The position numbers were made by a program, and so were the translations under genes. The notes below the pieces were generated by a model. The model had not been told where the DNA came from. It searched no databases and saw only the letters and a program-made list of their open reading frames with translations. Positions 2,305 through 57,912 of a stretch of 64,000 nucleotides of DNA are shown here, one piece after another. The DNA comes from Mobula hypostoma (Eukaryota): contig NC_086108.1 of the NCBI RefSeq assembly GCF_963921235.1, forward strand, positions 91,328,001 through 91,392,000, given 5' to 3'. Positions within the stretch are counted from its first letter, which is position 1. Each line of letters begins with the position of its first letter.

Positions 2305-4329
2305 GACTAAATCAAGGAAGGTAGTGCACCTGTGGCTGACAAGGGAAATTAGGGATAGTATCAATTCCAAAGAAGAAGCATACAAATTAGCCAGAAAAAG
2401 TGGCTCACCTGAGGACTGGGAGAAATTCAGAGTCCAGCAGAGGAGGACAAAGGGCTTAATTAGGAAGGGGAAAAAAGATTATGAGAGAAATCTGGCAGGG
2501 AACATAAAAACTGACTGTAAGGATTGGTTAAAACAAATGTAGGTCCCCTACAGACAGAAACAGGTGAATTGATTATGGGGAGCAAGGACATGGCAGACCA
2601 ATTGAATAACTACTTTGGTTATGTCTTCACTAAGGAGGACATAAATAATCTTCCGGAAATAGTAGGGGACAGAGGGTCCAGTGAGACGGAGGAACTGAGG
2701 GAAATGCATGTTAGTAGGGAAGTGGTGTCAGGTAGATTGAAGGGATTAAAGGCAGATAAATCCCCAGGGCCAGATGGTCTGCATCCGAGAGTGCTTAAGG
2801 AAGTAGCCCAAGAAACAGTGGATGCATTAGTGATAATTTTTCAAAACTCTTTAGATTCTGGATTAGTTCCTGAGGATTGGAGGGTGGCTAATGTAACCCC
2901 ACTTTTTAAAAAAGGAGGGAGAGAGAAACCAGGGAATTATAGACCAGTTAGCCTGACATCGGTGGTGGGGAAAATGCTAGAGTCAGTTATCAAAGATGTG
3001 ATAACAGCACATTTGGAAAGCGGTGAAATGATCGGACAAAGTCAGCATGGATTTGTGAAAGGAAAATTATGTCTGACGAATCTCATAGAATTTTTTGAGG
3101 ATGTAACTAGTAGAGTGGATAGGGGAGAACCAGTGGATGTGGTATATTTGGATTTTCAAAAGGCTTTTGACAAGGTCCCACACAGGAGATTAGTGTGCAA
3201 ACTTAAAACACATGGTATTGGGGGTAAGGTATTGATGTGGATAGAGAATTGGTTGGCAGACAGGAAGCAAAGAGTGGGAATAAACGGGACCTTTTCTGAA
3301 TGGCAGGCAGTGACTAGTGGGGTACCGCAAGGCTCAGTGCTGGGACCCCAGTTGTTTACAATATATATTAATGACTTAGATGAGGGAAATAAATGCAGCA
3401 TCTCCAAGTTTGCGGATGACACGAAGCTGGGCGGCAGTGTTAGCTGTGAAGAGGATGCAGGGTGACTTGGATAGGTTGGGTGAGTGGGCAAATTCATGGC
3501 AGATGCAATTTAATGTGGATAAATATGAGGTTATCCACTTAGGTGGCAAAAACAGGAAAATAGATTATTATCTGAATGGTGGCCGATTAGGAAAAGGGGA
3601 GGTGCAACGAGACCTGGGTGTCATTATACACCAGTCATTGAAAGTGGGCATGCAGATACAGCAGGTGGTGAAAAAGGCGAATGGTATGCTGGCATTCATA
3701 GCAAGAGGATTCGAGAACAGGAGCAGGGAGGTACTACTGCAGTTGTACAAGGCCTAGGTGAGACCACACCTGGAGTATTGTGTGCAGTTTTGGTCCCCTA
3801 ATCTGAGGAAAGACATCCTTGCCATAGAGGGAGTACAAAGAAGTTTCACCAGATTGATTCCTGGGATGGCAGGACTTTCATATGATGAAAGATTGGATTG
3901 ACTAGGCTTATACTTGTTGGAATTTAGAAGACTGAGGGGGGATCTTATTGAAACATATAAAATCCTAAAGGGATTGGACAGGCTAGATACAGGAAGATTG
4001 TTCCCGATGTTGGGGAAGTCCAGAATGAGGGGTCACAGTTTGAGGATAAAGGGGAAGCCTTTTAGGACCGATATGAGGAAAAACTTCTTCACACAGAGAG
4101 TGGTGAATCTGTGGAATTCTCTGCCACAGGAAACAGTTGAGGCCAGTTCATTGGCTATATTTAAGAGGGAGTTAGATATGGCCCTTGTGGCTAAAGGGAT
4201 CAGGGGGTATGGAGGGAAGGCTGGGGCGGGGTTCTGAGTTGGATGATCAGCCATGATTATACTGAATGGCAGTGCAGGCTCGAAGGGCCAAATGGCCTAC
4301 TCCTGCACCTATTTTCTATGTTTCTATGT
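2305..4329 (+). mobile_element. Young 5'-truncated CR1 LINE (ORF2 RT, 3' UTR, microsatellite tail)
   Basis: ORFs 2324-2542, 2524-3465 ([44 protein letters not shown]), 3380-3757 and 3914-4237; ends in TTTCTATGTTTCTATGT; few disablements. Confidence 0.97.
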
Positions 4330-9942: not shown

Positions 9943-12097
9943 GAGACCATGAGACATGGGAGCAGAATTAGGCCATATGGCCCATCAAGTCTGCTCCACC
10001 ATTCGATCATGGCTGATCCTTTTTTTTCTCCTCCTCAACCCCGGTTCCTGGTCTTCTCCCCGTAACCTTTGATGCAATGTCCAATCAAGAACCTATCAAA
10101 CTCTGCCATAAATACATCCAAAGACCTGGCCTCGACAGCTGCATGTGGCAACAAATTCAACATCCTTTAGCTAAAGAAATTTCTCCGCATCTCTGTTTTG
10201 AAAGGGAACCCCTCTATCCTGAGGCTGTGCCCTCTTGTCCTAGACTCTCCCACCATGGGAAACATCCTTTCCACATCTACTCTGTCTAGGCTTTTCAACA
10301 TTTGAAAGGTTTCAATGAGAATCCCACTTATCCTTCCGCATTCCAGCAAGTACAGACCCAGAGCCATCAAACGTTCCTCGTATGATAACCCTTTCATTCC
10401 TGGAATCATCCTTGTGAAACTCCTCTAAACACTCTCTGATGCCAGCACACCTTTTGGAAGATGAGGGGCCCGAAACTGTTCACAGTACTCAAGGTGAGGC
10501 CTCACCAGTGCCTTATAAAGCTTCAGCATCACACCCTTGTTCTTGTAATATAGACCTCTTGAAATGAATCTAACATGGCATTTGCCTTCCTCACCACCAA
10601 CTTGACCTTCAAGTTACTTTTTAGGGTGTTCTGCACAAGAACTCCCAAGTCCCCTTGCATCTCAGATTTTTGGATTTTCTGCCCATTTAGAAAATAGTCC
10701 GCACATTTATTTCTATTACCAAAGTGCATGACCAAGCATTTTCCAACATTGTATTTCATTTGCCACTTTCTTTCCTATTCTCCTAATCTGTCCAAGTCCT
10801 TCTGCATCCTACCCGTTTCCTCAACACTACCTGCCCCTACATCAACCTTCATATCATCTGCAAACTTGGCAACAAAGCCTTCTATTCCATCGTCTAAATC
10901 ATTTACATGCAGCATGTAAAGAAGTGGTCCCAACACCGACCCCTGCGGAATACCACTAGTCACTGCCAGCGAACCGGAAAAGGATCCCTTTATTCCCACT
11001 CACTGCCTCCTACCAATCAGACAATGCTCTAACCATGTTTGTACTTCCCTGTAATACCATGGGCTCTTAACTTGGTAAGTAGCCTCGTGTTTGGCAACTT
11101 GTCAAAGGCCATCTGAAAGTCCAAATATACAACATCCACTACATCTCCTTTATGTATCCTACTTGTAATCTCCTCAAAGAATTCCAACAAGTTTGTCAGA
11201 CAAGATTTTACCTTAAGGAAACCACACTGACTTTGTGCTATCATATTCTGTGTCATCAAGAACTCCATAACCTCATCCTTGACAATTGACTCCAAGATCT
11301 TCTCAACCACTGAGGTCAAGCTAACTGGTCTATAATTTCCTTTCTGCTGCCTTCCTCCATTTTAAGCAGTGGAATGACTTCTGCAATTTTCAGTCCTCTG
11401 GCACGATGTCAGAGATTTTTGAAAGAAAATTTCTAATGCCACCACAATCTCTAACACTACCTCTTTCAGTACCCTAGCGTGCAGTTCCTCTGGTGTGGGT
11501 GATTTATGTACCTTCAGGTCTTTCAGCTTTTTGAGCACCTTCTCTCTTGTAATAGTAACTGCACCCACTTCTCTTCCTTCACACACTATAACATCAGGCA
11601 TTCTGCTAGTGTGTTCCACAGTGAAGACTCCTGCAAAATACTCATTTAGTTCATCAGCCACCTCCATGTCCCCTGTTATTATTTCTCCCGCCTCATTTTC
11701 TAACGGTCCTATATTCACTCTCACTTCTCTTTTATTTTTAACATACTTGAAAGCACTTTTACTATCCACTTTGATATTATTTGCTAGCCTGCATTCATAT
11801 TTCATCTTTTCCCTTCTAAAGATCTTTTTAGTTGTTCTCTGTAGGTTTATAAAAACTTCCCAATCCTCCATCTTCCCACTAATATTTGCTTTGTTGTATG
11901 CCCTTTCTTTTGCTTTTACAATAGCTTTGACTTCCCTTGTCAGCCATGGTTGTACTATTTTACCATTTTTGGAATATATATGTTCTGTATCTTCCTCATT
12001 TTTCCCAGAAAAGAAATGCCATTGCTGCTCTGCTGACAACCCTAACAGCAACTCCTTCCAGTTTACTTCGGGCCATCTCCTCTCCAATATCACTGTA
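9943..12097 (-). mobile_element. 5'-truncated CR1 LINE, disrupted
   Basis: Minus-strand ORFs 11362-12093, 11029-11319 (YLDFQMAFDK), 10775-10999 ([14 protein letters not shown]), 10529-10759 and 10167-10409; CR1 3' tail at ~9943-10070. Confidence 0.95.
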
Positions 12098-12099
12098 AT

Positions 12100-15000
12100 T
12101 TTCAGTTATATGCCAGTTAACCTGACTTCAGTGTTAGGGAAGATGTTGGAGTCCATTATTAAGGTTAAGATTTTGGGGTAGTTGGAGGTACATGATAAAA
12201 TAGACCAAAAGTCAGCATGATTTCAGTACTCTCAAATCTGTTAGAATTCTTTGAGGAAATAACAGGCAGGATAAACAAAGAGTCAATCGATATTGTTTAT
12301 TTGGATTTTCAGAAGGCCTTTGACAAGGTGCCACACATGAGGCTGCTTAACAAGATAAGAGCCCATGGTGTTACAGGAAAGGCACTGGCATGGTTAGAAG
12401 ACTAGCTGAATGGTAGGAGCTAAAGAGTGGAAATAAAGGAGACCTTTTCTGCTTGGCTTCAGGTGACTAGTGTCGCAGAAGTTGGTGTTGGGAGTTCATC
12501 TTTTCACATAGTATGTCAATGATTCGGATAATGTATTAAATGGCTTAGAGGCCAAGTTTGCGAAGTATACAAAGATAAATGGAGGGGCAGATAGTGTTAA
12601 AAAAGGAAGAAGTTTGCAGAAGAACTTAAATAGATTGGGAAATTAGGCAAAAAAGTGGCAGATGGACTATAGTTTAGATAAGTGTATAGTCAAGCGCTTT
12701 GGTAGAAAAAATAAAGGCGTAGACTATTTTATAAATGGGGAATTCAAAAATCAGAGATGCCAAGGGACTTTGGAGTCCTCATGCAGGATTCCCTAAAGGT
12801 TAACTTGCAGATTGAGTTAATGGTAAGGAATGCAAATGCAATGTTAGTATGCATTTCAAGAGGATAAGAATATAAGAGCAAGAATGTCATGCTGAGGCTT
12901 TATAAGGCATTGATCAGACCACACTTGGAGTATTGCGAGAAGTTTTTGAATGCTTATCTCAGAAAAGATCTGCTGGCATTGGGAAGGATCCAGGGGAGGC
13001 TCAGGAGAATGTTTCCAAGAATGAAACGGTTAACATATGAGGAGTGTTCAAATGCTTGGGTCTGTACTCACTGGAGTTTAAAAGAATGAGGGGGGAATCT
13101 CAATGAGCCCTATTGAATGTTGAAAGGCCTAGATAGTGTTAATGTGGGGAATGTGGGAGCAAATTTGTAAGGAGATTCCAGATATTTGTAATAAGCACAA
13201 GGTTGTGTGTGGGAGATTTTAATTTTCCACACAAAGACTGGGAAGCGCATTCTGTAAAAAGGCTGGATGGTTTGGAGTTTGTCAAATGTATGCAAGATAG
13301 ATTTTTGCAGCAATACATAGAGGTACCAACTAGAGAAGGGGCAGTGTTGGATCTCCTGTTAGGGAATGAGATAGGGCAGGTGATGGAGGTATGTGTTGGG
13401 GAGCACTTCGGGTCCAGTGATCACAATACCATTAGTTTCAATATAATTATGCAGAAGGATAGGACTGGAACCAGGGTTGAGATTTTTGATTGGAGAATGG
13501 CTAAATTTGAGGAGATGCGAAAGGATTTAGAAGGAGTGGATTGGGACAATTTGTTTCATGGGAAGAATGTAATAGAGAAATGGAGGTCATTTAAAGGTGA
13601 AATTTTGAGGGTACAGGATCTTTATGTTCCTGTTAGGTTGAAAGGAAAGGTTAAAAGTTTGAGAGAGCCATGATTTTCAAGGGATATTGGAAACTTGGTT
13701 CGGAAAAAGAAAGGGATCTACAATAAATATAGGCAGCATGGAGTTAATGAGGTGCTTGAGGAATATAAAGAATGTAAAAAGAATCTTAAGAAAGGAATTA
13801 GAAAAGCTAAAAGAAGATATGAGGCTGCTTTGGCAAGTAAGGTGAAAATAAATCCAAAGGATTTCTACAGTTATATTAATAGCAAAAGGATAGTGAGGGA
13901 TAAAACTGGTCCCTTAGAGAATCAGAGTGGATGGCTATGTGCAGAGCCAAAAGAGATGGGGGAGATTTTGAACAATTTCTTTTCTTCGGTATTCACTAAG
14001 GAGAAGGATATTGAATTGTGTAAGGTAAGGGAAACAAGAAGGGTAGTTATGGAAAGTATGATGATTAAAGAAGAGGAAGTACTGGTGCTTTTAAGGAATA
14101 TAAAAATGGATAAGTCTCCAGGTCTGGTCAAGATATTCCCTAGGTCCTTGAGGGAAGTTAGTGTGGAAATAGCAGGGGCTCTGACAGAAATATTTCAAAT
14201 GTCATTAGAAACAGGGATGGTGCCGGAGAATTGGCATATTGCTCATGTTGTTCCATTGTTTAAAAAGGGTTCTAAGAGTAAACCTAACAATTATTGGCCT
14301 GTAAGTTTGACTTCAGTGGTGGGTAAATTGATAGAAAGTATTCTTAGAGATGGTATATATAATTATCTGGATAGACAGGATCTGATTAGGAACAGTCAAC
14401 ATGGATTTGTGCATGGAAGGTCATGTTTGACAAATCTTATTGAATTTTTTGATGAGGTTACTAGGAAAGTTGACAAGGGTAAAGCGGTGGATGTTGTCTA
14501 TATGGTCTTCAGTAAGGCCTTTGACAAGGTTCCACACGGAAGGTTAGTTAGGAAGGTTCAGTCGTTAGGCATTAATATCAAAGTAGTAAAATGGATTCAG
14601 CAGCGGCTGGATGGGAGACCACAGAGATTAGTGGTGGATAACTGTGTGTCAGATTGGAGGACAGTGTGGACCGGTGTGCCTCAGGGATCTGTACTGGGTC
14701 CAGTATAGTTTGTCATATATATTAATGATCTGAATGATGGGGTGGTAAATTGGATTAGTAAGTATGCAGATGATACTAAGAGAGGTGGCGTTGTGGATAA
14801 TGAAGTAGGTTTTCAAAGCTTGCAGAGAGATTTAGGCCAGTTAGAAGAGTGGCCTGAGAGATGGCAGATGGAGTTTAATGCTGATAGATGTGAGGTGCTA
14901 CATTTTGGTAGGACTAATTAAAATAGGACATACATGGTAAATGGTAGGGCATTGAAGAATGCTGTAGAACAGAGGGATCTAGGAATAATGGTGCATAGTT

Positions 15001-22833: not shown

Positions 22834-23691
22834 ACATAGAAACATAGAAACATAGAAACATAGAAACATAGAAAATAGGTGCAGGAGTAGGCCATTCGGC
22901 CCTTCGAGCCTGCACCGCCATTTATTATGATCATGGCTGATCATCCAACTCAGAACCCCGCCCCAGCCTTCCCTCCATACCCCCTGACCCCCGTAGCCAC
23001 AAGGGCCGTATCTAACTCCCTCTTAAATATAGCCAATGAACTGGCCTCAACTGTTTCCTGTGGCAGAGAATTCCACAGATTCACCACTCTCTGTGTGAAG
23101 AAGTTTTTCCTAATCTCGGTCCTAAAAGGCTTCCCCTCTATCCTCAAACTGTGGCCCCTCGTTCTGGACTTCCCCAACATCGGGAACAATCTTCCTGCAT
23201 CTAGCCTGTCCAATCCCTTTAGGGTCTTATACGTTTCAATCAGATCCCCCCTCAATCTTCTAAATTCCAACGAGTACAAGCCCAGTTCATCCAGTCTTTC
23301 TTCATATGAAAGTCCTGCCATCCCAGGAATCAATCTGGTGAACCTTCTTTGTACTCCCTCTATGGCAAGGATGTCTTTCCTCAGATTAGGGGACCAAAAC
23401 TGCACACAATACTCCAGGTGTGGTCTCACCAAGGCCTTGTACAACTGCAGTAGTACCTCCCTGCTCCTGTACTCGAATCCTCTCGCTATAAATGCCAGCA
23501 TACCATTCGCCTTTTTCACCGCCTGCTGTACCTGCATGCCCACTTTCAATGACTGGTGTATAATGACACCCAGGTCTCGTTGCACCTCCCCTTTTCCTAA
23601 TCGGCCACCATTCAGATAATAATCTGTTTTCCTATTTTTGCCACCAAAGTGGATAACTTCACATTTATCCACATTAAATTGCATCTGCCAT
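22834..23691 (-). mobile_element. Very young 5'-truncated CR1 with an uninterrupted ORF2 C-terminus
   Basis: ORF 22950-23684 has no stops; (ACATAGAA)n tail at 22835-22873; near-identical inverted copy of ~3495-4329. Confidence 0.97.
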
Positions 23692-24788
23692 GATAAACCT
23701 TAGTTTGCAAAAGCAACAAGGGAACCAGTTAAAACTAAAAGGACAACATGGCAAATAGTGCAGGTTTGTGTGCCTTCCAGTAGCTAACTACACACCCAGA
23801 TTTTCAGCAAAGAAGTGTGAGTCTTAGAAAGCCAGCAAATGAAGAACATTGTGCTTCTGTTCCAGATGAGAGAGCGAGAAAGCTGTGGTTGCTCAGACAG
23901 AGTAAGATAAGGTCATGGCTGGTGCTTTTCCTTCGATGGAGATCTGAATCAAATATTGACACAAACAATCTTTACAGTTGCAAGTAGCACTGAAGCTACT
24001 AATGCAGGGTTTTGGGCAGACTAAGATGAATGTTGTAAATAAAAGGCCTCAAGATTCTGCCTATGTGAAATCATGTTTGAATGTGTCACTGTGAATAATT
24101 CATGTTTGAGCTGTGTTTGGTGCCATTTTCTATACCGATGGCAGTTCAAGTGATTTGCAAACTTGACGTTGTTGTTGGATGTGAAAATATTTGTACGCAA
24201 ATAGACAAATGTCATCTGTTTTGTATACTGTATATTTTGTACATTGTAATTTTTGGTTTTGTATACTTTGCATGTTATTTAGTAAGATTCTTTGTGGGTT
24301 CACAATCTCAGAGTGTGTCTTTGCAGCTGGAAAACTCCCTCCTGTGTTACTGACCCATGAATGTTCTAACCAAAGAAAGTGTTCTGTTTTTACGTTCATT
24401 AAATATTTAAATTTCTATGGTGAGTCTTTAAAGAAATTATGTACTAAAGTTTAAAGACTGAACATTTAACTTGCAGAACGACATGTGTTCTTCGGGTTTG
24501 CTTCCTTTCATTTTCAATAATTATTTGTTTAAATGATAGACGACCAGATATGTTGACTGATAATGGAGAAGAAACATGGAAGTTATAGTGGGTGACTTTA
24601 ATTTCTCCCAAAGTAACATCCTTAGTATCAATACACCCAAGAAGTTTTCTAGACACATTTTGGGGAAGGGGCCATACTAGACTTTGTATTGGAAGTGACC
24701 TACCCGAGTGAATATAGTTTCAATGGGAGAACATTTTGGGAACTGCGATCATAACTCAGTAAGTTAAGGATATAGACAAGACTGGACT

Positions 24789-26960: not shown

Positions 26961-27054
26961 GTATGTTCAATATTGTATATCCCTAATTATCACTGAAATG
27001 AGGAGACAGTTAATAGTCAAATACAAAAGTTGTTCTAATGCCACATAAAATATA

Positions 27055-27252
27055 AAGCAACACACACAGAATGCCAGAGGAACACAGTAAGTCAAGCAGC
27101 ATCTATGGAAAAGAGTTTAGGCCAAGGGTCTCGGCTCAAACTTTGACTGTTTACCCTTTTCCATAGATGCTGCCTGAGCTGCTGCGTACCTCTGGCATTC
27201 TGCATATGTTGCTTTAGATTTCCAGCATCTGCAGACTTTCTCATGTTTGTGA
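27055..27252. mobile_element. Fold-back Penelope-derived element
   Basis: AAAGCAACACACACAGAATGCCAGAGG..GCAGCATCTATGGAAAAG is inverted against CTTTTCCATAGATGCTGC..CCTCTGGCATTCTGCATATGTTGCTTT; the centre holds an AAGGGTCTCGGCTCAAAC hammerhead remnant. Confidence 0.75.
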
Positions 27253-27663
27253 TTTACTACTCCCCATATAACCCTGATTGGGTAAGAATAACTGATTCCA
27301 TTCTCCAAGCATTAATGACAGGGGTGCAGTGCTGCTGGAGCTCTCTGGAGCACTGCTCCGGCACCTCTGTAAAAAACAATCAAAATAAACAGGTGGGGAA
27401 TTTAACAGCAGCGGCATATTAAATAGAGGGAATTTTACAGAAGCGGGGATTGGGGAGAGGGGGTGGTGGCCTGTGGGGAAAATACCACTAATAACATTAG
27501 GATATTTGATCATTTTTGGTGAAATCCTGGAGCCGTGACTGTTTTTTTATTTTGGTATTTGTGAAATTCCCCCTCGCTCGACCCGTTGTCCCAGCATGCC
27601 CTGCTGTAGCCTCCCGCCATTTCACCGATCCTCAGTCTCTCTCCGGCACTCGTTGTTTGAGCA

Positions 27664-29535
27664 TTGTTTGCCGCGAAAATAAAAATCTTAGATCTTTTGA
27701 AAAGTGGCACGTTGCCTGCCGAAGTGGGCCATAAGGTCGGTAAGAACGAATCGAGCATTTGCACAATAAAGCAGAAAGAAGCTGAAATTCGTGGAAGTGT
27801 TAGTGCTACCCCTACAACGGCAAAAATGGTCTCTCTGGTTCGTTCAATTTTTCGTTCTGCATATTATTTAGCTCAGAATGACAGACCATACTCTGATCAC
27901 TTTGGCTTATTGGAACTTCAAAAAAATGGTATTGGCATTGAATTGGACTGCATTCCCACACTAGTGCTACAGAGATAATTAATCACGTAGCCATTAATAT
28001 GAAAAAGAAAATTTGCCAGCATATCAAGCAGATAAATAGCAAATTTTCTGTTCTCATTGATGAATCAACAAGCCTGAGCATTAAGACTGCCCTAATAGTT
28101 CATTTGAAATGTGGGAGTAATAAGGAAGGTGATCCCCATTTTATGTTTTTAGATCTAATTGAACTGCCTGATCAGAAAGCTGCAACTATTGCTAAGCATC
28201 TATTGAACTGTCTCAATAACCATGGGTTTGATGACTCTTACTTGAAACAGAACCTTGTAGCATTTGCTAGTGATGGGGCGAGCGTAATGCTTGGTGTCAA
28301 ATCCGGTGTTGCTACAATTCTCAAGGAACATTACCCTGATGTGATAATTTGGCACTGTCTTAATCACAGAGTAGAACTTGCAGTAGGTGATTCGGTGAGA
28401 GAAGTTCACGGAATAAATCATTTTCAATCATTTATGGACAAATTGTACTCCATTTACAGTAGATTACCTCTAAATCAAAAGGAACTTTCTGAATGTGCCT
28501 CTCAACTAGAACAACAAATTTGCAAAATAGGCTGTGTTCTGGGCACCAGGTGGGTAGCTAGCTCGTTTCGAACAGTTTCAGCAGTCTGACAAAATTATGA
28601 AGCACTGTGTTTTCATTTTGAAAAAGCAATGAAGGATGAAACAAGATCTGGGAGTGACAGATAAACCTATGAAGGTCTGTTGAAAAGATTCTCTTCAGAA
28701 CAGTCTCTATTGGACTTAGCTCTAATGTATGACACGTTGCATGAACTTGGTTTACTGTCAGAGCGTTTACAGAAACGCACTACTACGATTTTTTATGCAG
28801 ACAAACTGATCCAATGGAGCATAAGATCACTGCATGGACTGAAAGAGCAACCTGGTACAAAAACTCTAGAAGCTCAAGAGGCAGTTGAAAAGCAGAAGTT
28901 TGGAGAAATTACCTTAACAAGCAACAACAAAATTGTCTCCATTAATTATCTAAAGTTTCTTACTAGTCTTATAAACAAATTGCAGCACCGTATGTTCATG
29001 GCAACATCCTTGAAAGGTTCTCAAACTTCTAAACCTCAAGGTATGTATAAATCCCTGCTAAATCAAATGTGTGTCCTTTATAAAGATAACTGGCCTGCTG
29101 AAATACTGCCTAATTATGGAGAAGCTGCAATATCATCTCTCTGTAAGAGGTTTAAGCTTTCCTCTTCCTCTCTAATAAATGCCTTCAGAGATTATGTGGA
29201 GGATCGTGGATGCCGCATCCCCCAAGACTTACACCCATTACTGAGCTGTTCACAAGCTATTCCTGTTAGTACTGCTGAGTGTGAGAGAGGATTCAGTCAT
29301 ATGAATTTGATAATAACAACACGCTCAAGGATTCTCATATATCTATGTATCAGTGCTTATGTTTGTTAAACTACACAGACCTCCTCTAGTTCAGTGGAAT
29401 CCTGAGCCGTATGTCACATCATTGCTGCGGTACCACAGATCAGCAGATGACACCAGGACAAGAGTTGCTTCAGACCCCAAACACACATTACGCCAGACCC
29501 TTTGTGGACGTCATTTTGAAACTTCTCATTGGTAG
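27664..29535 (+). pseudogene. Disrupted KIAA1586-like hAT transposase with a Tigger/pogo-type N-terminal HTH
   Basis: hAT motifs IDEST, SDGASVMLG, WHCLNHR, TRW and STAECERGFS; frameshifts near 27945 and 29345; TGA at 28587-28589 where Trp is expected. The first ~60 codons (KIKILDLLKSG..GKNESSICTIKQKEAEIRGS..TAKMVSLVR) resemble Tigger transposase. Confidence 0.88.
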
Positions 29536-29824
29536 CATTTGGTAAGTAGGTAATTAGCTTTAAATTGGTAAAATACATGATCACCATCTTTTTCTTTACT
29601 TGCTTGATAATTATATTTTATGATCATTAGTGAGTGCAACTGTGCAATACTTCGTCATATTATTAAATTAAATATATGTTTTATCGTACCAGTTATACAC
29701 TGAAATGTAGTGATGGGCTATAATCTTGTTAATGTCTGAACTATCACTATATTTCTGTGGAGCTCTGGAATTCATATATTTCTTTCACTTTGGTTTAGTG
29801 CTTGACATTATAAGAAACCCTATT

Positions 29825-29929
29825 CATATATCAATATCCCAATTTGTGTACCTGCTCATTACATGAATGGGGCAAGGAAGTTGCCCAGTACATGAAATGA
29901 GCAGGTACACAAATTGGATGTGACATATG
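29825..29929. repeat. Long inverted repeat (hairpin) in the hAT 3' subterminal region
   Basis: Perfect 22-bp arms at 29839-29860 and 29896-29917 (CCAATTTGTGTACCTGCTCATT); imperfect pairing extends inward to a GGAAG loop and outward. Confidence 0.9.
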
Positions 29930-30016
29930 TATAGAGAGGATATAGGAAATGGGAGGCATTTTGTCAGCTCCGGCACCTGAAAAATTAGCACTACACCCCT
30001 GATTAATGAACCGGAA

Positions 30017-30232
30017 ATCACAAATGCGAGAGATTCCACAGATGCTGGAAATCCAAGCACATAGAAAATGCTAAAGGAACTCATCAGGTCAGGCAGCATC
30101 TATAGATAGGAACAAAGATTCAACCATTACGGGATGAGACCAGATGAAGGGCCTTGGCTCAGAACATTGACTCTTTAGTCCTTTCCATAGATGCCGCCTG
30201 AAGTGCTGAGTTTGTCCAGCATTTTGTGTGCT
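30017..30232. mobile_element. Fold-back Penelope-derived element, decayed
   Basis: Left arm AAAATGCTAAAGGAACTCATCAGGTCAGGCAGCATCTAT, right arm ATAGATGCCGCCTGAAGTGCTGAGTTTGTCCAGCATTTT, centre CAGATGAAGGGCCTTGGCTCAGAACATTGACT. Confidence 0.7.
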
Positions 30233-32194: not shown

Positions 32195-33122
32195 TACAGC
32201 ACAGTACAGGCCCTTCGGCCCACAATGTTGTGCCGACCTTCAAACCCTGCCTCCCATGTAAACCCCCACCTTAAATCCTTCCATATACCTGTCCAGTAGT
32301 CTCTTAAACTTCACTAGTGTATCTGCCTCCACCACTGACTCAGGCAGGGTATTCCAGGCACCAACCGCTCCCTGAGTAAAAATCCTTCCTCTAATATCCC
32401 CTTTGAACTTCCCATCCCTATCCTTAAAGCCATGTCCTCTTGTATTGAGCAGTGGTGCCCTGGGGAAGAGGCGCTGGCTATCCACTCTATCTATTCCTCT
32501 TATTATCTTGTACACATCTATCATGTCTCCTCTCATCCTCCTTCTCTCCAAAGAGTAAAGCCCTAGCTCCCTTAATTTCTGATCATAATGCATACTCTCT
32601 AAGCCAGGCAGCATCCTGGTAAATCTCCTCTGTACCCTTTACAATGCTTCCACATCCTTCCTATAGTGAGGTGACCAGAACTGGACACAGTACTCCAAGT
32701 GTGGCCTAACCAGAGTTTTATAGAACTGCATCATTTCATCACGACTCTTAAACTCTGTGCCTCGACTTATGAAAGCTAACACCCCATAAGTTTTCTTAAC
32801 TACCCTATCCACCTGTGAGGCAACTTTCAGGGATCTGTGGACATGTACCCCCAGATCCCTCTGCTCCTCCACACTACCAAGTATCCTGCCATTGACTTTG
32901 TACTCTGCCTTGGAGTTTGTCCTTCCAAAGTGTACCACCTCACACTTCTCCGGGTGAAACTCCATCTGCCACTTCTCAGCCCACTTCTGCATCCTATCAA
33001 TGTCACTCTGCAATCTGCGACAATCTTCTACACTATCTACAACACCACCAACCTTTGTGTCGTCTGCAAAGTTGCCAACCCACCCTTCTACCCCCACATC
33101 CAGGTCGTTAATAAAAATCACG
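32195..33122 (-). mobile_element. 5'-truncated CR1 LINE
   Basis: ORFs 32639-33145 (FINDLD..FADDTK..LEYCVQFW) and 32240-32614; tail ACAGCACAGTACAGGCCCTTCGGCCC. Confidence 0.95.
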
Positions 33123-33944
33123 AAATCACAATTATAAACGGACAATCTTTTCTGTTCCCTTTATGTCTTGGTGCAGAGCCTCAACCCAAAGTATCAATTT
33201 ACACCTTTTGCCACCACAAATACTGCTTGCCCCGCTGAGTCCTTCCTGCATTCTTTTATTGTATGCGGTTGTTTTCATCAGGGTTTTATAAAGTTCTTCA
33301 TGAATTTTTTAGCCTTCTACTATGTGCCTGTATTATAAGCCCAGGATCCTCTATGCTTTTCCGGTCATTTTCTCAATCAGCCATTTCAATGCAGTATGTG
33401 CACATAAACCCAGGTCTCCGTGTTCATGTAGTCATATTAGAATTATATCTTCCAGTTCCTATTGACTTTTCTCACCAATTGTAGCAAGGCATCATCTGTC
33501 AACCTTGCTGCACCTGTTCAGTTTCTTGCTCATCCAGAATCACAATTACAAGTTCCTTTTTGAAAATTGGAGTCAGTAGCAGTGGACAACTCAGTTCCTC
33601 AAACATGATTCATTATTCAACACAATCGTGGCTAATCTGACTGCATCATCAGCTCTGCATTCTACCTCCTACTCAGTAAAATTTTTATACCTACTTGCAT
33701 ATCAGGAATCAACCTCCTACTTCTAAATATTCAGTAACTGCTTCAACCACCCTTAGAAGAAGTCAGTCTATGACTTTTGAAACTAATTATTTTAACTTAT
33801 CTCTGTTAAAATGGAAACACTTAAGATTATGCTACAATCTTTAGTCATTAATTGTATTTTTTTTATATATGAAGAAGCATTCAGTCTAGATCCACCTGGC
33901 TGAAGTTTTTTGATGTTTCAAACAAGCCTTTCCGAACTTTCAGA

Positions 33945-45002: not shown

Positions 45003-47077
<2,075 letters not shown>

Positions 47078-56428: not shown

Positions 56429-57912
56429 CTGTAATTCAAAGGTTTGAAGGTCTAATTTAATGTCAGAGAAATGTATACAATATACATCCTGAAATGCTTT
56501 TTCTTCACAACCATCCACGAAAACAGAGAAGTGCCCCAAAGAATGAACGGCAGTTAAATGTGAGAACCCCAAAATACTCTCCAGCTCCCCCCTCCCGTGA
56601 GTAAGTGGCAGCGAGCAACAATCCCCCCTCCTCCCACCAGCAAAAAAAAGTGCATCGGTACCATTACCAAGCCCAAGTGTGTGCTAAGCAAAAGCAAAGA
56701 CACAATCCAAGTTTACCCCAGAGGTCTCATATTTCATCTGCCATTCGACAACCCACAGGTTCTCTCTCTCCCTGGCAAAGGAGAAGGAGGTGTCCCCCTA
56801 TTTTCACAGCGAGTGGGAGACATAACAACAACCCACTGGTTTACTTACTTTACTTTATACTTTATTGTCGCCACACAACTAATACTAGAACATACAATCG
56901 TCACAACGATATTTGATTCTGCGCTTCCTGCTGCCTGGATTACAAATCAATAGTAATTATTAAAAATTTAAATTATAAATCATAAATAGAAAATAGAAAA
57001 ATGGTAAGTAAGGTAGTGCAAAAAAACTGAGATGCAGTTCCGGATATTTGGAGGGTACGGTCCTGATCGGGGTCAGGATCCGTTCAGCAGTCTTATCACA
57101 ATTGGAAAGAAGCTGTTCCCAAATCTGGCCGTACGAGTCTTCAAGCTCCTGAGCCTTCTCCCGGAGGGAAGAGGGACAAAAAGTGTGTTGGCTGGGTGAG
57201 TCGTGTCCTTGATTATCCTGGCAGCACCGCTCCGACAGTGTGCGGTGTAAAGTGAGTCCAAGGACGGAAGGTTGGTTTGTGTGATGTGCTGCGCTGTGTT
57301 CACGATCTTCTGCAGTTTCTTCCGGTCTTGGACAGGACAACTTCCATACCAAATTGTGATGCACCCTAGAAGAATGCTTTCTACTGTGCATCTATAAAAA
57401 TTAATGAGTGTTTTAGGGGACAGGCCAAATTTCTTTAGTTTTCTCAGGAAGTAAAGGCGCTGGTGGGCCTTCTTGGCAGTGGACTCTGCTTGGTTCTGCT
57501 TGGTTGCTTTTACAATGGTAAAAGTCCATTTCATCGCTTTTTTTCGAGCTCTGTGTCCAAAGATCTACAATGAAAGATTTTCCTGCCTCCCTGATGACAG
57601 ACGATTCTCCTGCCATGACACCGACCCTCGATCCACCCGTCTCCAGAGCCCCGAGATCTTAGGCTTCCAAACACGAGTGAGACTCTCAGGCCAAACCCTT
57701 CACATGTCGAATAACGGCCAGTCGTGAACCCCCAAGAACGGATCCCATTCCCGCAAAGAACCGAAGCCTGCGTGGAACTCCAGGTCAGGGTCTTCAAAAG
57801 AACCCTGAAAAGGAAAAATAATCATATTGAAGGTGGAAATAGAGCTTTTTCCAAAGATGCAAGCAAAGGAATCACCATTAGGCTCCATTAACCCTCCTAA
57901 GCTCCGCCTTCA
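56429..57912 (-). mobile_element. Unclassified non-coding retroposon inserted in CR1 ORF1
   Basis: Flanked by GTGAT on both sides; the minus-strand 3' end has ATTAAA and a degenerate TTGAA/CTTCAAAC tail; a related 3' end lies at ~22060-22260(+). Confidence 0.55.
56841..57495 (-). mobile_element. Young Rex1/Babar 3' fragment, nested in the preceding element
   Basis: ORF 57073-57534 reads AKKAHQRLYFLRKLKKF..LPSGRRLRSLKTRTARFGNSFFP; (AAGTA)n tail; its 3' UTR is nearly identical to 59450-59662. Confidence 0.9.

Follow-up and report, generated by a model that had tools for sequence, protein, structure and literature searches.

The window, by which we mean the whole stretch of 64,000 nucleotides of Mobula hypostoma DNA that was analysed, contains at 27319-30001 a 2683-bp element that belongs to the hAT transposons as a decayed, KIAA1586-like copy, and in which a Tigger remnant runs in frame into the hAT transposase gene. 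The best explanation, to which we give a probability of about 0.85, is that a Tigger inserted into a hAT element, that deletions fused the two reading frames, and that the shortened element was a passenger, likely moved in trans by an intact hAT transposase. The Tigger target was a TA within the non-coding 5' region of a KIAA1586-like element. Later deletions, which presumably arose when gaps were repaired at short homologies while hAT was active in a single burst, joined the Tigger coding sequence in frame to the hAT gene. The products would be non-autonomous deletion derivatives with intact hAT ends, with the zinc-finger-bearing copies as their probable helpers; their in-frame state would be due to chance, and their copy number to a jackpot. 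The genome retains the insertion site, the excision footprints, the deletion series, the hAT-type amplification of the deleted forms (with 8-bp duplications) and their neutral decay.

The element has the 8-bp duplication, the short inverted ends and the transposase homology of a hAT; its features are collected in Table 1.

Table 1. Features of the hAT element and of its join to Tigger (window coordinates)
Feature	Position	Strand	Remarks
Target-site duplication, left copy, 8 bp	27311..27318	.	8/8 identical to 30002-30009
hAT left terminal inverted repeat, 15 bp	27319..27333	+	14/15 complementary to right repeat; same end in copies at other sites
5' non-coding end of hAT	27334..27593	+	found too in Tigger-free copies L077-L079
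Tigger 5' non-coding remnant	27594..27668	+	matches free Tigger L026 1205-1279; deleted here: first ~145 bp of Tigger, its left end and ~14 bp of hAT flank
Tigger coding remnant, ~codons 26-83	27668..27843	+	second half of CENP-B_N/psq HTH plus linker
Tigger-to-hAT deletion junction, in frame, two shared bases	27842..27843	+	Tigger codon 83 to hAT frame base ~544
KIAA1586-like hAT transposase core, minus first ~181 codons (start and zinc finger)	27842..29520	+	
hAT right terminal inverted repeat	29987..30001	-	
Target-site duplication, right copy	30002..30009	.	

A stop-free frame of 105 amino acids (27661-27978) crosses the join and reads as quoted in the preliminary description, which had recognized in it a run from Tigger-like into hAT-like sequence. 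Residues 6-61 of this frame are 82% identical (46/56) to the N-terminus of P0003, a full Tigger transposase with CENP-B_N, Tc5 HTH and DDE_1 domains. Pfam, in contrast, finds no family at E≤10 in the 61-amino-acid Tigger part of the window, because half of the first HTH has been lost. The profile check that had been suggested gave a weak Dimer_Tnp_hAT match (E=0.053, Pfam) for the window hAT halves, and no CENP-B_N, Tc5 or DUF4371 match was found in the window's own frames. Faint Pfam matches to ECR1_N_2 and STb_secrete in these frames (E 0.009-0.37) were taken as chance. Beyond the junction, the frame matches the KIAA1586-like hAT protein P0001 of Latimeria, in agreement with the family first assigned to this part. 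hAT transposases share the motif set D, D, CxxH, RW, E, and catalytic-type motifs are discernible in the window core, although its frame is broken. The DDE/RW motifs of these enzymes have been described (PMC10641963).

DNA similarity changes from free Tigger to hAT at the junction, whose two bases fit either parent. The heptamer TTCGTTC, pointed out as repeated around this place, is indeed there twice; however, the second copy is native to hAT, being present in unfused copies, and the first was created by the join. The Tigger DNA of the element is internal only (L026 1205-1279 and 1412-1582), with neither inverted end nor the TA duplication, in line with the lack of Tigger TIRs noted before, and the match stops at codon 83, without the Tc5 HTH and the DDE_1 catalytic domain. 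About 130 bp with the Tigger start codon are missing at ~27670, the first in-frame ATG lies at 27826, as had been reported, and the window copy has Thr (27709-27711) where other copies have an internal Met. The zinc finger of the parent hAT form (Cys pair at residue 94, His pair at 143) is wholly deleted in the window copy, in which its absence had been remarked. In the hAT 3' end, a hairpin at 29839-29917 (37-bp arms, 89% complementary, 5-base loop) is found in other copies too.

Compared with the family majority, the window core has two stops (28587-28589 and 28662-28664) and three frameshifting indels, with damage near 27940 and near 29320-29345. The open frame does not continue: the one-base loss near 27940 shifts it. 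There is neither an intact frame of 600-800 amino acids with a start codon nor an N-terminal zinc finger, as an autonomous hAT would have, and the window hAT element is dead.

On either side (27048-27221 and 30015-30230), the element is flanked by short inverted repeats that belong to a common family of small interspersed elements. Besides the hAT element, the window frames of at least 130 amino acids are LINE-like fragments only, with no host gene evident among them, and the window appears to be repeat-rich non-genic DNA. Fragments at 2521-3465, 11362-14708, 22950-23699, 32240-33160, 45608-46235 and 57073-57564 are taken by us to be CR1/L2-type, reverse transcriptase-like.

Free Tigger copies are about 1.6 kb long with short inverted ends, and they are flanked by TA at the left in 19 of 19 and at the right in 14 of 15 cases where this was found. 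In the long hAT form, about 965 bp of non-coding sequence lie between one TA and the start codon. When 30 copies of the hAT 5' non-coding block were compared, 24 had the Tigger right end and TA, four a footprint, one a single TA and one a deletion over the site. Where the left flank is intact (16 copies), two copies have the single TA of an empty site and 14 have TA, three to four Tigger-end bases and TA. Copies L154-L169 carry four-base footprints in 13/16 and a three-base footprint in 1/16; 11 of these 16 are on small contigs and may be duplicated segments. Footprints of 2-4 bp are known for Tc1/mariner elements, a range fitting those found here (PMC7913693). The Tigger excision footprints within hAT were themselves propagated.

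Empty, footprint and filled sites all occur; Tigger therefore inserted into hAT, with the two elements oriented alike, and in some cases left it again. The insertion was nested in the hAT 5' non-coding part and the deletions came later, which was one of the two origins offered in the preliminary description. In the lineage that kept Tigger, the first deletion took the Tigger left end and the second the start codon, which is missing from the hAT-borne coding copies; a ladder of deletions into or past the hAT gene followed. The free Tigger majority (L081-L100) has a stop at codon 150, where the hAT-borne copies have Tyr, and this is the sole difference in that stretch. By this comparison, the nested Tigger derives from a form that predates the codon-150 stop.

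The window junction is found in three copies genome-wide, on three contigs (pattern search; control 0), and their separate target duplications (8/8, 7/8 and 7/8) show that it is not unique to the window copy; the uniqueness that had been named at the outset as a refutation is thus not seen. With a 171-base query that covers the join, 40 of 523 candidates were scored and 41 matches obtained; three of these span the join, at the same three places as in the pattern search. Most other copies keep about 420 extra bases between the two halves. At the long junction, Tigger extends to about codon 161, including the whole Tc5 HTH, and is followed in frame by the hAT frame from base ~353 on; this point lies midway through the zinc finger, half of which is deleted. 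At least 94 copies have this junction (pattern search; control 0), a floor, as 12 of 36 further fetched copies belong there too. The native hAT start is kept at 95 places, and the left join, from hAT flank to truncated Tigger, is present in 172 copies. Furthermore, DNA contigs of organisms B and C run across the long junction with 31 or more letters to either side of it; among the pieces listed (best 32 of 1743), those of organisms D and E do not bridge it. Four of 36 sampled copies (L189, L192, L194 and L198) form another deletion class, a non-coding element of about 1.2 kb in which Tigger codon ~165 is joined to the hAT 3' non-coding end.

Some of these data speak against a mere passenger. 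Among the coding-to-coding classes, the one that far outnumbers the rest is in frame, with its Tc5 HTH whole, the out-of-frame sister join a few bases from the long junction is rare (2/36 sampled copies), and the internal Met is present in 35 of 48 hAT-borne copies. The founder of the 94-copy class may thus have made a working fusion of about 750 amino acids from the internal Met, with the Tigger Tc5 HTH and the hAT catalytic core, which would have aided its spread, the window form being a later deletion; we regard this as unlikely. The occurrence of the long junction in organisms B and C and the catalytic-type motifs kept in the majority frames are in its favour. The majority sequence of 34 long-junction copies (L104 left out) consists of frames of 234 and 550 amino acids, split only at an A-run located 26 codons beyond the window junction; majority sequences break there in fused and unfused classes alike and do not by themselves give the ancestral frame, so that run lengths were counted copy by copy. 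In copy L124, no stop interrupts a run of 311 codons that takes in both the join and the A-run, and there is a complete Tc5 HTH (E=1.9e-8, Pfam), CENP-B_N below the cut-off and a weak match to CENP-B 1hlv (E=0.022). On these grounds, an unbroken frame of some 750 codons was probably, or at least possibly, present in the founder of the 94-copy class.

Against this, the modal A-run, of 8 bases, is out of frame: this state was observed in 29 of 41 long-junction rows (L217, of another junction class, being included among the 41) and in two of the three window-type copies. In favour of the founder fusion, the in-frame 10-base run is kept in 5/41 long-junction rows, and L134 has the ancestral, interrupted form typical of unfused copies. 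In-frame junctions are not enriched, as four of eight distinct coding-to-coding junctions (long, window, L190 and L208) are in frame and four (L201, L219, L188 and L186/L217) out of frame, p=0.26 against one third. For this count 14 copies were tested, L186 and L217 were taken as one class, and five copies were excluded: L205 and L206, in which the long junction has lost one base, L221 and L196, in which it is accompanied by local indels, and L189, which joins the 3' non-coding end.

In addition, lineage-specific substitutions are lacking. Sixty copies of all classes lie 2.4-5.5% from one majority sequence (class means 2.6-3.8%, about 3.6% overall) in a star tree with no subfamilies resolved, and at none of 1250 sites do the 33 fused and the 22 unfused copies differ more than expected by chance (lowest p=0.02). 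Given the equal distances, the star tree and the lack of a separating site, the fused form therefore has no history of its own. Uncorrected dN/dS values were 0.79, 0.72 and 0.69 in the copies, versus 0.83 in free Tigger controls; the range of 0.69-0.79 was obtained in long-junction copies, together with 68 stops and 131 frameshifts. As judged from these values the copies decay neutrally, which is a weak test of the founder: DNA transposases act in trans, so that neutral decay of the copies is uninformative in this respect.

The HTH of pogo/Tc1 transposases is expected to bind the ends of its own element. Because both Tigger ends were lost in the fused classes, including the 94-copy class, the HTH would have had no cognate site on its own element. 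The loss of half of the hAT finger also weighs against a working founder: Tgf2 without its finger no longer bound its ends, and its activity fell from 56% to 21-25% (PMC4890040), and Hermes cannot do without the BED region in vivo (PMC10368747). It is improbable that the founder produced an active natural cross-superfamily transposase, with the Tigger Tc5 HTH replacing half of the zinc finger on a complete hAT catalytic core, which may have guided hAT insertions to Tigger ends. The window class, with no Tc5 HTH, no finger and Thr for Met, is the weakest case for a working fusion. The other origin offered at first, a domain swap yielding a working chimeric transposon, is unsupported, because the Tigger start codon is deleted family-wide, the internal Met is absent from the window copy, the HTH has no remaining Tigger end to bind, and in-frame joins show no excess. 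A protein search with L124 (25 matches among 2666 candidates of 546-2000 amino acids) gave none that joins a Tigger HTH to a KIAA1586-type core, which is weak evidence of absence.

It is less probable still that the three window-junction copies each underwent their deletion separately after insertion, at one and the same short homology, rather than stemming from a common deleted master. The three copies do not cluster in the core tree, the break shares only two bases plus a near-match, and single-copy junctions are common; however, the tree resolves none of the classes, the three copies break at exactly the same base, the window copy and L101 share an upstream transversion missing from the majority, and the other single-copy deletions all break elsewhere. 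A direct swap of domains, in which the Tigger piece was captured or recombined between coding sequences and not brought in by transposition, would agree with the finding that no hAT copy has both Tigger ends (0/16 with intact left flank), but it is largely refuted, and hardly credible, since the right Tigger end with TA, the empty TA and the footprints are all at one site ~965 bp upstream of the hAT start.

Relatives of both parents occur in other vertebrates. P0010 of Tiliqua scincoides is a SCAN-domain protein that ends in a closely related Tigger CENP-B_N and Tc5 HTH (68% identity to the L124 frame), and the KIAA1586-like P0001 of Latimeria is 57% identical over 65% of the L124 frame. The skink and coelacanth relatives hint at a wide or horizontal spread of the two parents.

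The L124 protein search also brought out P0002, P0004, P0027, P0040 and P0042, the proteins of a GTF2I-like host gene at C71:44639543-44698659 of this genome (L182:2044-2595, L182:4052-4156, L183:702-2660). These ray proteins, annotated as GTF2IRD2-like, start with this Tigger family's intact CENP-B_N and Tc5 HTH, followed by GTF2I and then by a hAT transposase of a family different from that of the window, whose exon is open for 653 codons. The Tigger of this gene is internally deleted with both ends and TA kept; it gives the first coding exon, with its own start codon, and the splice donor lies within the Tigger 3' part. Database records for the gene were found in Mobula, Hemitrygon akajei, Hypanus sabinus and a fourth accession series. 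The Tigger frame is intact in one of 20 free copies examined, namely the exon of this gene, which has 6 silent and 6 replacement changes (dN/dS 0.27, p=0.08 versus pooled copies, not significant). The gene has likely captured transposases twice, in parallel to GTF2IRD2 of mammals, which has been called placental-specific (preprint 10.1101/2020.05.07.082677). It is a stronger candidate for a working Tigger-plus-hAT chimera than the window element, of which it is no part. A second, far more diverged Tigger-like frame (L184:3106-3663, 32% identity to the P0002 N-terminus) is located 2 kb upstream of the first GTF2I exon of a neighbouring paralogue on C71. Neither a ray GTF2I fusion nor a natural Tigger-hAT chimera was found reported in the literature; subscription journals, Repbase/Dfam entries and supplements could hold such reports.

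Several known systems resemble the window element in part. MER6, a Mariner-derived MITE with a V-SINE domain, is a composite non-autonomous transposon (PMC6887750) and likewise holds foreign element sequence between intact ends, spread by a burst of the carrier. Here, in contrast, both cargo and carrier are DNA transposons, of different superfamilies, the insertion site is preserved with footprints, and deletions join two reading frames in frame. The core, the 8-bp duplication, the short inverted ends and a parent form with an N-terminal zinc finger are shared with KIAA1586-like hAT elements, whereas the window copy has a Tigger remnant in place of start and finger, and a broken frame. With Tigger/pogo elements (PMC7386202 and P0003) the family shares N-terminal sequence of the CENP-B_N and Tc5 HTH region, with no Pfam match in the window copy, and the free Tigger copies have TA duplication and short inverted ends; the window element is without the ends, the start codon and the DDE domain. 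As in GTF2IRD2, SETMAR and POGK/POGZ, a transposase domain is joined in frame to a foreign domain (10.1101/2020.05.07.082677, PMC10641963 and PMC7386202); those, however, are described as single-copy spliced host genes under selection, whereas the window-type join is multi-copy, unspliced, decaying and inside a mobile element. Deletion derivatives from single events have been considered the first steps to non-autonomous families (PMC4423477).

The copy counts per junction, the census of frames and the sites found empty or with footprints record the rise of a fusion frame between superfamilies with unusual completeness, as in a fossil series, with the empty site, the filled site, the footprints propagated by the carrier and a deletion ladder that leads to in-frame joins, one of which was amplified about a hundredfold. 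They also call for caution, as an in-frame, multi-copy chimera with target duplications is not proof of a working hybrid. If the founder fusion had been active, it would represent natural domain swapping between transposon superfamilies, akin to the DNA-binding-domain swaps made by engineers.
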